Shown here one piece after another: positions 10,204-59,119 of a stretch of 64,000 bases of DNA. The stretch covers positions 1 to 64,000 of the forward strand of contig DXJL01000056.1 in NCBI GenBank assembly GCA_019057635.1, in the 5' to 3' direction. This DNA is from Candidatus Heimdallarchaeota archaeon. GTDB taxonomy: Archaea; Asgardarchaeota; Heimdallarchaeia; Hodarchaeales; Hodarchaeaceae. The position numbers and the translations under genes were made by a program. The notes below the pieces were generated by a model, which made no database searches, was not told where the DNA came from, and saw nothing but the letters and a program-made list of their open reading frames with translations. Position 1 is the first letter of the stretch; every line of letters starts with the position of its first letter.

Positions 10204-11115
10204 CTACCGACGTATTTTTCTCAGTAGATAATCTATTATTTTTTTGGCAACGTTTATCTCGGGATTGGCCATTTCAAATGCTTTCCATCCTGGACAGGCA
10301 TTTACTTCAAGGATGTAAGACCCATTTTGGGTAGGAAATAGATCTATTCCAGCTACTTCAATTCCAATTCTTTCTGCTATTTGATGTACTAGTTCTTCAT
10401 CTTCAGGCAACAACTGATATGCTTCACAATTGGCTCCGAGGGCAAAATTTGTTCGCCATTCTCCAGTTGGGGCTATTCGCTTCATGCTGCCAATGATCTC
10501 CTTTCCTATGTAGATTACTCGTATATCCGCAGACGGGGGAGATGAATGTAGAGGCCCAGATCGAAGATATTCTTGGATCATAATTGGTTCAGAAGATCGC
10601 ATAAATAGTGATTCAATAATCTCTTCTGCTGTTTTTGGATTAGGCGCTAACATGCTTCCACTTCCCCGGGTCGCATCAGGTAGTTTTATGACCACAGGAA
10701 ATTTAAAAGCTTTTAACAATTGGTCGGCCTGAAACGAGTTATTAATTAATATTGTTCTAGGTAATTGTACTCCTTTTATCTTTGATAACGATTGATAACA
10801 GCGAAACTTATCTCGTGAAAGAAAAAGAGCCTCTGCTGAAAGAGTACTTGGAATATTCATTAACTCAAAATGCTTCAAACATATTAAACCCATATTTGTT
10901 TGAGATCTTCCGATGCGTGGAACAACCCCCAATAGTGGTAGTAAGGATTGGTTCGCAAATCGAGCATCAGTACCTGAAGAACTAATTAATGGAAAAACAT
11001 ATTGTGTTGATAGAAAAACACCAGAGATATCATTTCTTTGGTTGATATCCTTAAGTAATTGTGTTGTCGGAAAATAGTCTTTATTTCTACTTAGGACACC
11101 TATTTGTTTAACCAC
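10204..11115 (-). CDS. rimK: RimK-family ATP-grasp ligase
   Basis: RDKFRC, FPVVIK, IQEYL, DIRV, WRTNFALG, AGIDL and LEVNACPG. Confidence 0.9.
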   Translation of the reverse strand: MVKQIGVLSRNKDYFPTTQLLKDINQRNDISGVFLSTQYVFPLISSSGTDARFANQSLLPLLGVVPRIGRSQTNMGLICLKHFELMNIPSTLSAEALFLSRDKFRCYQSLSKIKGVQLPRTILINNSFQADQLLKAFKFPVVIKLPDATRGSGSMLAPNPKTAEEIIESLFMRSSEPIMIQEYLRSGPLHSSPPSADIRVIYIGKEIIGSMKRIAPTGEWRTNFALGANCEAYQLLPEDEELVHQIAERIGIEVAGIDLFPTQNGSYILEVNACPGWKAFEMANPEINVAKKIIDYLLRKIRR

Positions 11116-11131: not shown

Positions 11132-11240
11132 TAGCCCCGCTCAGATTCGAACTGAGGTTAGAGAGTATTTCTCCACGGTTCTACGCTTAGTAGACTCGTA
11201 CTATAGAACTCTCTGTGATGGACCACTACACTACGGGGCT
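11132..11240 (-). tRNA. Intron-containing tRNA with a Gln-type body; canonical 37/38 splicing gives anticodon CUA
   Basis: Acceptor AGCCCCG/CGGGGCT+A, anticodon stem GAGAG/CTCTC, T arm CTCAG-TTCGAAT-CTGAG. 36-nt intron at 11167..11202 with BHB-type helix TTCT/AGAA. Anticodon at 11204..11206. Confidence 0.85.
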
Positions 11241-11244
11241 TAAA

Positions 11245-11448
11245 TTAACGAACTGGGCTTGAAAAAGTAAGAATATCATCAATAAGTTCTACGTGTGTAA
11301 TTAACATTCTTCTGCAGCAGTATCGCTTTAAATCAAATGAATCTAATAGTTCTGATGCTTCCTTACCAGCTTTCATGCCGTCTAAAAAATCATCATAATA
11401 GTGGGCAATAACTTTTCCGCAAGTATAACAGCGTATAGGAATCATCAT
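11245..11448 (-). CDS. rpoN: RNA polymerase subunit N (Rpo10)
   Basis: MIPIRCYTCGK...KRYCCRRMLITHVELID. Confidence 0.98.
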   Translation of the reverse strand: MMIPIRCYTCGKVIAHYYDDFLDGMKAGKEASELLDSFDLKRYCCRRMLITHVELIDDILTFSSPVR

Positions 11449-11464
11449 AGTGCTAATTCACCTG

Positions 11465-12118
11465 TTAAAATCCATCATCGCTCAGGGGTCGTCGGCCTCG
11501 TGGGGCTCTAAATAATTCTACCCTTAATTGAGCATCTTTTTCTGGTGTTAATTCACCACGTTCTCTAAGAATTTCCTTTGTTAATAACCAAAATATCATG
11601 GCTAAGGAATTACGCCCTTTATTGTTACAAGGAATAGCAAGATCAATATTACTTATTGTGTTATCAGTGTCAACAAGAGAAATAACAGGGATTCCCATTC
11701 GATAAGCCTCTTTCAGAGCTTGATGATCGAAGTGAGGATCAGTAATTAATACGCTAGTGGGTTCGATAAAATTATATCGTCCTTTGATGCTTGGATTCGT
11801 GAAAATTCCCGGAATAAATCTTCCAGTAATAGGTTCTGCTCCTGTCACTTTACAGAACATTTCTACAGGATAAATTCCGTATGCCCTGACACTACATGCA
11901 GCTACTCGTGACGTATCTTGACGTGCGAGGAATTTCGCTGCAGTACGTATACGATCATCAGTTTTATGGACATCTAAAACGTAAAGCCCATCGTTTCGAG
12001 TCCGATAGATCGCCCAATCCATGCTTTTCATTCCGCTAGATGTTCCAATGTGGACACCTGCTTTTAAGTAATCTTCTAGAGGCGTGAGCAATTCTTCTTC
12101 TTGTATAGGGGCTGTCAT
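11465..12118 (-). CDS. rps2: 30S ribosomal protein uS2
   Basis: YLKAGVHIGT, GRFIPGIFTNP, IPCNNKG. Confidence 0.98.
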   Translation of the reverse strand: MTAPIQEEELLTPLEDYLKAGVHIGTSSGMKSMDWAIYRTRNDGLYVLDVHKTDDRIRTAAKFLARQDTSRVAACSVRAYGIYPVEMFCKVTGAEPITGRFIPGIFTNPSIKGRYNFIEPTSVLITDPHFDHQALKEAYRMGIPVISLVDTDNTISNIDLAIPCNNKGRNSLAMIFWLLTKEILRERGELTPEKDAQLRVELFRAPRGRRPLSDDGF

Positions 12119-58725: not shown

Positions 58726-58838
58726 AGGGACGTAGTCTAGCATGGTTTTAATTGCTTTCTGAATTAACACAGAGGTAATGACTAGATGATTCTTGGTTTG
58801 GGACCAAGAGGTCGCGGGTTCGAATCCCGTCGTCCCTA
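58726..58838 (+). tRNA. tRNA-Pro(TGG) with non-canonical intron in the D arm
   Basis: AGGGACG/CGTCCCT+A, CTTGG-TT-TGG-GA-CCAAG, GCGGG-TTCGAAT-CCCGT, about 36-38 extra nt within the D arm. Confidence 0.9.
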
Positions 58839-59119
58839 CCTTTCTTATCTTCTCAAAGAGTTTCTAATTTTGAATAAAATTAAGACTATCAACGGTATTT
58901 AGTTAATTGAAGTAACATTACTTCTAATGCTCTTTCTGGTTAGAAAAAGAATCAGCCTTTGATAATATTACTATACTAATTTTCTTCCTGTAAATGTTAA
59001 AGAATGATCATTTTTGAAGAGTAAGCTGTTCATCTTCCTCAAGACATAAAACTCAATTATCGTGTTTTAGTTTTTTCAACAATATAAAACGGGTTTCGGA
59101 TAACAAGGAACTTTAGATT

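Follow-up and report, generated by a model that had tools for sequence, protein, structure and literature searches.

A tRNA gene with a CUA anticodon between rpoN and rimK

The window analysed here is a stretch of 64,000 nucleotides from a Candidatus Heimdallarchaeota genome (G000). On its minus strand, an intron-containing tRNA gene is embedded in a conserved run of protein-coding genes. The features of the locus are:

11465..12118, minus strand: rps2 (ribosomal protein S2), first gene of the conserved S2-RpoN-tRNA-RimK run
11245..11448, minus strand: rpoN (RNA polymerase subunit N), with a stop codon 4 nt ahead of the tRNA 5' end
11132..11240, minus strand: intron-containing tRNA gene with a 73-nt mature product, a Gln-type body (A1-U72, A73) and the anticodon CUA
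11203..11240, minus strand: 5' exon, tRNA positions 1-37, comprising acceptor strand, D arm, 5' strand of the anticodon stem and loop bases UUCUAU
11204..11206, minus strand: anticodon C34-U35-A36 (TAG on the plus strand), with U37 at the adjacent base 11203
11167..11202, minus strand: 36-nt intron, placed by ARAGORN with introns allowed, splicing-motif geometry and covariation
11132..11166, minus strand: 3' exon, comprising A38, 3' strand of the anticodon stem, variable loop, T arm, acceptor strand and A73
10204..11115, minus strand: rimK-like ATP-grasp gene, starting 16 nt past the tRNA 3' end, preceded by a GGAGGA motif and ending in TAG

An earlier, sequence-only reading of this DNA had placed the tRNA in an rps2-rpoN-tRNA-rimK run, and the neighbours were indeed identified as S2, RpoN and RimK. 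The short distances to rpoN and rimK imply co-transcription. Contigs of two RNA libraries from one sample (window 11234-11504) cover rpoN and not the tRNA, and end at 11234/11235, 5-6 nt inside the tRNA 5' end. Such ends would fit RNase P cleavage of a co-transcript, a weak hint given that contigs cannot show true ends. A joint in one DNA run that resembled the spliced form proved to be an intronless tRNA-Gln(CUG) of another organism.

The product folds into a cloverleaf with a 7-bp acceptor stem (AGCCCCG/CGGGGCT) that carries A1-U72 and the discriminator A73, a D stem of three standard pairs and a U13-U22 mismatch, a 9-nt D loop with GG, a 5-bp anticodon stem (GAGAG/CTCTC), a 4-nt variable loop (TAAC) and the T arm CTCAG-TTCGAAT-CTGAG; no CCA is encoded in the 3' exon. 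Of the fully paired cloverleaf described before, A1-U72, A73 and the variable loop are as stated, and the one D-stem mismatch is the exception. The combination of A1-U72 with A73 is that of archaeal tRNA-Gln, and 11 congeners carry tRNA-Gln genes with the same body at the same locus, so that both body marks and positional orthology to tRNA-Gln(CUG) support the earlier assignment to the Gln type. The anticodon departs from this pattern: in place of YUG, which would read CAR, the spliced loop UUCUAUA presents CUA. Read directly on the minus strand, the 43 nt separating GAGAG from CTCTC hold neither CTG nor TTG, as had been reported.

Splicing motif and behaviour of tRNA finders

The intron is framed by a bulge-helix-bulge motif, with two 3-nt bulges, a 4-bp central helix and flanking helices h and h'. 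In G000 the order is a 5-bp h, an ATA bulge on the 3' side, TTCT/AGAA, an ATA bulge on the 5' side and h'. The central helix arises where AGAA in the 3' part of the intron pairs with loop bases 32-35, and the inner part of the intron folds into h' and a hairpin. Here h' consists of a G-G mismatch followed by UACG/CGUG, which makes the motif near-canonical in G000; it is canonical in two relatives (G020 and G005). Cleavage after the second base of each bulge joins UUCUAU to A and yields CUA, U37 and A38. When all 7-nt loops were enumerated from both ends, four of the eight joinings gave this same loop, and the remaining four either lacked U33 or gave AAA or CAA with U37. With introns allowed, ARAGORN placed a 36-nt intron, read the anticodon as cta, gave the tRNA a length of 73 nt and labelled it 'tRNA-Pyl'. 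The TTCT/AGAA helix beside a 3-nt ATA bulge, proposed in the sequence-only reading, was thus recovered in the motif table, and its splice at 37/38, giving the loop UU-CUA-UA in a 73-nt tRNA, agrees with both geometry and ARAGORN.

Intron-blind searches overlooked the gene. Default ARAGORN found a single tRNA (Thr) in the window, and Rfam gave two tRNA matches elsewhere at the gathering threshold and none at the CUA locus, even with E values up to 10; both misses are explained by the intron. With introns allowed, ARAGORN labelled several CUG orthologues of the gene 'cta', 'ctt', 'gaa' or 'aaa', the erroneous 'tRNA-Pyl(cta)' label falling on several among loci L007, L009-L014 and L017. A 'tRNA-Stop(tta)' called elsewhere in G000 (contig C78:2319-2421) is tRNA-Lys(UUU) when spliced at 37/38. 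Because ARAGORN's intron placement is unreliable, splice sites were taken from the geometry of the splicing motif. Annotation pipelines based on ARAGORN would therefore call this gene tRNA-Pyl, and orphan tRNA-Pyl reports that such pipelines have produced for Asgard genomes may need re-checking.

Two further observations concern unusual tRNA genes. A tRNA at window positions 58726-58840 (plus strand) carries a non-canonical insertion around its D arm; the anticodon arm CTTGG-TTTGGGA-CCAAG identifies it as Pro(UGG). ARAGORN wrongly calls this gene Gln(ttg), and the Rfam match is confined to 58769-58838 (29.5 bits). In G016 and G001 (loci L018 and L043), archaeal-type tRNA-Gln genes appear by eye to be interrupted by introns at two places, ahead of the anticodon stem and at 37/38, which would turn the loop TTTTGG into UUG.

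Two anticodon states at one locus

A DNA search of 61 genomes (G000 and 60 relatives) returned full-length matches in 17, all of one Hodarchaeota genus that is represented by 22 genomes including G000. The S2-RpoN-tRNA-RimK order is kept at all 17 loci, as are the splicing geometry and the spliced length of 73 nt. Six of them (G000, G002, G020, G004, G018 and G005) carry CTAT, with TTCTAT before the intron, and 11 (L007-L017) carry CTGG, with YYCTGG before the intron, corresponding to Gln CUG with G37. The CUG orthologues share locus, intron site and motif geometry with the CUA tRNA, and in the acceptor stem, D arm and T arm they match it exactly or almost exactly. They differ in having G36 and G37 where the CUA tRNA has A36 and U37, and in an anticodon stem of GAGGA/TCCTC as opposed to GAGAG/CTCTC. 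Pattern scans of public collections, specific to the D arm of this genus and open to any base at 37, found T at position 37 in every CTA match and no CTA-G37 intermediate.

The helices covary as expected of a bulge-helix-bulge intron. Across the 17 orthologues, 94.3% of 493 pair cells are paired, compared with 34.9-51.5% when partners are slid by 1-3 columns. Compensatory changes occur in 10 of 29 pairs, including all five h' pairs, three of the five anticodon-stem pairs have changed on both sides, and none of 500 shuffles reached the covariation score of the real alignment.

On this comparative sequence evidence, the CUA tRNA is the positional orthologue of an archaeal-type tRNA-Gln(CUG, G37), and CTA-T is the derived state. 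The sequence-only reading had asked whether CTA is conserved in relatives and had named CTG-G orthologues as evidence against itself. Such orthologues exist at 11 of the 17 loci, yet CTA-T is conserved in six species; being derived as well as conserved, it leaves the finding standing.

The CUA state may have arisen more than once. In a tree of S2, RpoN and RimK, G005 joins the CUG-bearing G019 (support 100/99), and the other five CTA genomes form a separate clade (100/100). A tree that holds all six CTA loci in one clade is rejected (p-AU 0.006), so either the change from GG to AT occurred twice or G019 reverted. A group of the six CTA loci plus G019, which was defined after the tree had been seen, is not rejected (p 0.47). 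The locus tree would thus be compatible with a double origin of the same change, with reversion in G019 as the alternative.

Some orthologues show oddities of their own. Locus L014, in the complete genome G010, has C33 in place of the near-universal U33 (loop CCCTGGA), and this genome also has GlnRS. A first acceptor pair A1-C72 is found in the G005-type CUA tRNA (L006, L168) and in the CUG tRNA of G013 (L017).

Authenticity and purifying selection

The bases around the anticodon, for which the earlier reading had advised verification at 11202-11206, were compared with assembled contigs of two independent DNA runs from other studies. The plus-strand bases 11203-11206 (ATAG) are unchanged in both, and the sole difference of these contigs from the window tRNA is an intron base, 11193. 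CTA is also present in a G005-type gene on a separate metagenome contig. Sequencing error is ruled out by these independent DNA contigs together with conservation in six species.

When the six CTA loci are aligned, 65 of 73 exon columns show no variation, compared with 9 of 36 in the intron. A36 and U37 do not vary within the group, and next to them A, T and G all occur at position 38. Dividing exon difference by the distance between flanking proteins gives 0.31 for the CTA loci and 0.42 for the CTG loci. Synonymous divergence of gatD and gatE between most CTA species is saturated or large (dS at least 1.4 for G000-G020), although it was incomputable for several pairs and the close pair G000-G002 is an exception (dS 0.24). 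In G004 the anticodon stem has undergone a compensated change from G27-C43 to A27-U43. Slow exons against saturated synonymous sites indicate that the gene is neither an error nor a pseudogene. These substitution patterns show purifying selection on the tRNA body, on the anticodon and on U37.

At the rpoN-rimK junction of three congeners (L193-L195), what is left of the tRNA in G017 is a decayed remnant, and no tRNA is present in G011 or G006. Since loss is possible at the same locus within the genus, retention is not trivial.

UAG remains an ordinary stop codon

A tRNA with a CUA anticodon raises the question of whether TAG has been reassigned. Stop usage was counted in long ORFs (200 aa or more), the relatives being represented by 166-400 kb each. 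TAG ends 411 of 1683 long ORFs in G000 (TAA 810, TGA 462), 35 of 169 in G020 and 15 of 72 in G005, all with the CUA tRNA, and 49 of 226 in G010 and 40 of 210 in G019, both with CUG. The TAG share of stops is thus 21-24% in CUA genomes and 19-22% in CUG relatives. A back-up stop follows within five codons at a frequency of 0.34 for TAG, 0.36 for TAA and 0.38 for TGA, which gives no excess for TAG. Pairs of same-frame coding ORFs split by one stop number 32 for TAG, 61 for TAA and 35 for TGA; three of the TAG-split pairs that have no nearby ATG look like adjacent genes. When 540 ORFs of G010 and G019 were aligned to G000, 352 had matches, and the roughly 115,000 aligned residues contained four in-frame TAGs, 11 TAAs and nine TGAs. 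None of the four TAGs lies opposite Gln; they face N, W, K and E, and most of the matches concerned are poor or antisense. The recognition motifs of aRF1 are identical in CTA and CTG genomes, and the factor is encoded once per genome, the exceptions being a fragment in G018 and a second match in G008. The Vps4 and RimK genes themselves end in TAG.

No read-through footprint was therefore found in stop usage, back-up stops, ORF pairs or aligned ORFs. The sequence-only reading had taken TAG for a normal stop and genome-wide recoding for improbable, and stop usage, in-frame TAGs, aRF1 motifs and the TAG ends of vps4 and rimK all agree. UAG remains an ordinary stop codon, from which it follows that the CUA tRNA can be at most a weak read-through tRNA.

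The rimK stop itself (window 10204-10206) is TAG in all six CTA genomes and TGA or TAA in the 10 CUG genomes with a readable stop, including G019, the sister of G005. As this pattern reflects only two independent lineages, it may be due to chance.

Pyrrolysine tRNAs have a short D loop without GG, a 3-nt variable loop, a 6-bp anticodon stem and no T-psi-C sequence. The CUA tRNA has a normal GG-containing D loop, TTCGAAT, a 5-bp anticodon stem, a 4-nt variable loop and tRNA-Gln orthologues, and the earlier judgement that it is not tRNA-Pyl can be upheld. The PylS C-terminal model TIGR02367 had no match in G000, which is 91.6% complete.

A bacterial-type GlnRS with its own tRNAs for glutamine codons

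G000 encodes two class I synthetases of the Glu/Gln type. One is an archaeal GluRS (NF003169, 585 bits, cut-off 516), the other a GlnRS (TIGR00440, 692 bits, cut-off 425.8). Against solved structures, the latter scores 678 bits with 5bnz, 655 with E. coli entries and 427 with the human enzyme, and by these sequence matches it is of bacterial type. It lies outside the window (contig C166:8922-11279; loci L031, L051) together with tandem intronless genes for tRNA-Gln(CUG) and tRNA-Gln(UUG), the nearer about 0.6 kb from glnS; both have A1-U72, but G73 and A37. The check for separate tRNA-Gln genes that the earlier reading had recommended thus turned up a dedicated pair in the same genome. With a bacterial-type GlnRS and its own tRNAs in place, the CUA tRNA is redundant for glutamine codons.

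Within the genus, 12 of 22 genomes gave a GlnRS match. Four CTA genomes are among them, and the two CTA genomes with no match are G004 (89% complete) and G005 (74% complete). An archaeal-type tRNA-Gln(UUG), with A73 and G37, is present in G010, G012, G019 and G006, and was found in none of the six CTA genomes. The failure to find this gene, combined with the change from CUG to CUA, indicates that the archaeal-type tRNA-Gln set no longer serves glutamine codons in these six species. In its accessible part, a 2022 review (PMC9499178) holds that all archaea lack GlnRS, which it explains by A73 versus G73, and gives A1:U72, the D loop and A73 as the marks of archaeal tRNA-Gln. The accessible text of a 2024 preprint (10.1101/2024.07.04.601786) mentions in passing a GlnRS beside cox genes in Hodarchaeales, and this was the one report of the enzyme in this setting that we found.

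In the CTA genomes the archaeal amidotransferase is encoded by two intact neighbouring genes, gatD and gatE, whose dN/dS is 0.02-0.11. GatE scores 333-352 bits in the CTA genomes versus 533-578 bits, and its C-terminal YqeY-like tail is not recognised by Pfam there. In the GatD tree, the CTA genomes, G006 and one of two G019 copies sit on a very long branch apart from their congeners. We considered the low GatE score as a sign of a new function specific to the CTA genomes and rejected this, since the same type occurs in G006, in G019 and in other families: a class-wide search found it as the sole GatE of another family and as a second copy in a further one. It therefore represents an alternative GatDE lineage that is not tied to the CUA tRNA. 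Two deeply diverged GatDE lineages coexist in this genus (G000 contig C183:32189-35432; loci L053-L072), and G019 has both operons.

What the CUA tRNA might do

Comparison of the genes establishes a selected, structurally intact tRNA(CUA), spliceable by its predicted motif, that derives from tRNA-Gln(CUG). As to its role, our leading interpretation, which we hold with about as much confidence as doubt, is that it is a selected but attenuated UAG-reading tRNA of the Gln type. Once a bacterial-type GlnRS and two dedicated tRNA-Gln genes had taken over CAG and CAA, the archaeal-type tRNA-Gln(CUG) would have been freed by redundancy, its archaeal-type UUG partner no longer being found. Adjacent substitutions G36A and G37U would then have turned the loop YU-CUG-G into UU-CUA-U, as seen in six species. 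The spliced tRNA would retain the marks read by GatDE (A1-U72, D loop and A73), and with these kept, the archaeal GluRS could load it with Glu and the retained GatDE could convert this to Gln. The charged tRNA might read UAG in competition with aRF1, the pyrimidine at 37 acting as an attenuator that keeps this reading weak. The outcome would be low-level read-through of UAG with glutamine under an unchanged genetic code. It speaks for this interpretation that GluRS, gatD and gatE are present and that gatD and gatE are under constraint. Weighing against it, the genomes bear no footprint of read-through, A36 together with U37 may abolish charging by GluRS or GlnRS, and GatDE could be kept for other tRNA-Gln genes that also have A1-U72. 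A stronger version, in which the GluRS-GatDE route has been re-aimed through the CUA tRNA at UAG, making the codon deliberately ambiguous between stop and Gln and the components a naturally orthogonal pair, seems to us unlikely, if worth stating.

A serious contender, although one we believe less readily than weak UAG reading, is that the anticodon was moved onto the stop codon and weakened by U37 so that the molecule could be kept for a role other than decoding. Candidates for such a role are a processing signal between rpoN and rimK, cut by RNase P and RNase Z, a partner of GluRS-GatDE, or a donor of activated Glu or Gln. The tight packing of the tRNA, with gaps of 4 nt to the rpoN stop and 16 nt to the rimK start, is in keeping with this, as are the RNA contigs of one sample that end at its 5' end (a weak hint) and the lack of a read-through footprint, which fits a non-decoding tRNA as well as a weak suppressor. 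Moreover, most single changes of CUA would create a missense-reading tRNA, and this could by itself fix the anticodon. However, a pure processing signal needs neither a conserved anticodon nor U37, and both are invariant while position 38 and the intron vary; three congeners manage without an intact tRNA at this locus; and no non-ribosomal user of Gln-tRNA or Glu-tRNA was identified. That the anticodon and U37 are conserved speaks more for decoding, or for recognition of the anticodon by a partner, than for a mere processing signal. A decaying pseudogene of a redundant tRNA-Gln, for which one could cite the redundancy through GlnRS, the archaeal-type tRNA-Gln(UUG) that was not found, C33 in the G010 orthologue and the decayed remnant in G017, is very unlikely: exon constraint equals that of the CUG orthologues, compensatory pairs are kept within the CTA group, as in G004, and most exon columns are invariant despite saturated synonymous sites (G000-G002 excepted). 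Even less credible is a transcript edited or modified, for instance at A36, to read a Gln codon again; the oddity of U37 and the Gln-type body are the only hints of it, CAG and CAA already have dedicated tRNAs, and we know of no archaeal editing of tRNA position 36. Among the outcomes that the sequence-only reading had offered, a weak suppressor and a repurposed RNA both fit the data, and an edited tRNA can be largely set aside. The least probable explanation of all, to which we give practically no credence, is genome-wide reassignment of TAG to glutamine or pyrrolysine with the CUA tRNA as its decoder. The anticodon and the ARAGORN label 'tRNA-Pyl' are all that would suggest it; against it, TAG stop usage equals that of the relatives, in-frame TAG is rarer than TAA or TGA and never opposite Gln, the aRF1 motifs are unchanged, the PylS model has no match in the 91.6% complete G000, and the tRNA does not have the shape of tRNA-Pyl.

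Known systems and significance

Amber-reading glutamine tRNAs are known from other settings. The supE allele of E. coli encodes a bacterial amber suppressor tRNA-Gln(CUA) that is charged by GlnRS. As in the case described here, a glutamine tRNA has changed from CUG to CUA while UAG stays a stop codon; supE is, however, a laboratory or strain allele with a purine at 37, no intron and direct charging by GlnRS, whereas the CUA tRNA, with its U37 and archaeal intron, has become fixed in six wild species and is likely to use the GluRS and GatDE route. Ciliates in which UAR means glutamine possess tRNA-Gln(CUA/UUA), abundant in-frame TAG and altered termination. There, too, a Gln-type tRNA captured a stop codon after duplication or redundancy, but the abundance of in-frame TAG sets ciliates apart from these archaea, in which there is no such signal and aRF1 is unchanged. 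We found no description of such a tRNA in the literature on suppressor or CUA tRNAs of Asgard or Heimdall archaea. Orphan 'tRNA-Pyl' calls in genomes without pyl genes have been reported for Lokiarchaeia and Thorarchaeia, with none for Heimdallarchaeia in the accessible part of that paper (PMC9723677); as far as that part goes, these calls resemble the present gene in having a CUA anticodon in an Asgard archaeon without Pyl machinery.

The textbook view of archaea as devoid of GlnRS is also touched by this genus, in which the enzyme occurs alongside tRNAs with G73 and dismantling of the archaeal-type tRNA set is under way. Coexisting with GlnRS, a set of GluRS, GatDE and tRNA(CUA) would be a candidate orthogonal pair. 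Theories of codon reassignment need an intermediate in which a redundant tRNA captures a stop codon that still ends most genes. The CUA locus looks like that intermediate stage, caught in nature, and it comes with its own material for comparison: the donor tRNA, the cause of redundancy in a GlnRS acquired from bacteria and its retuned tRNAs, and sister species that retain the old state.
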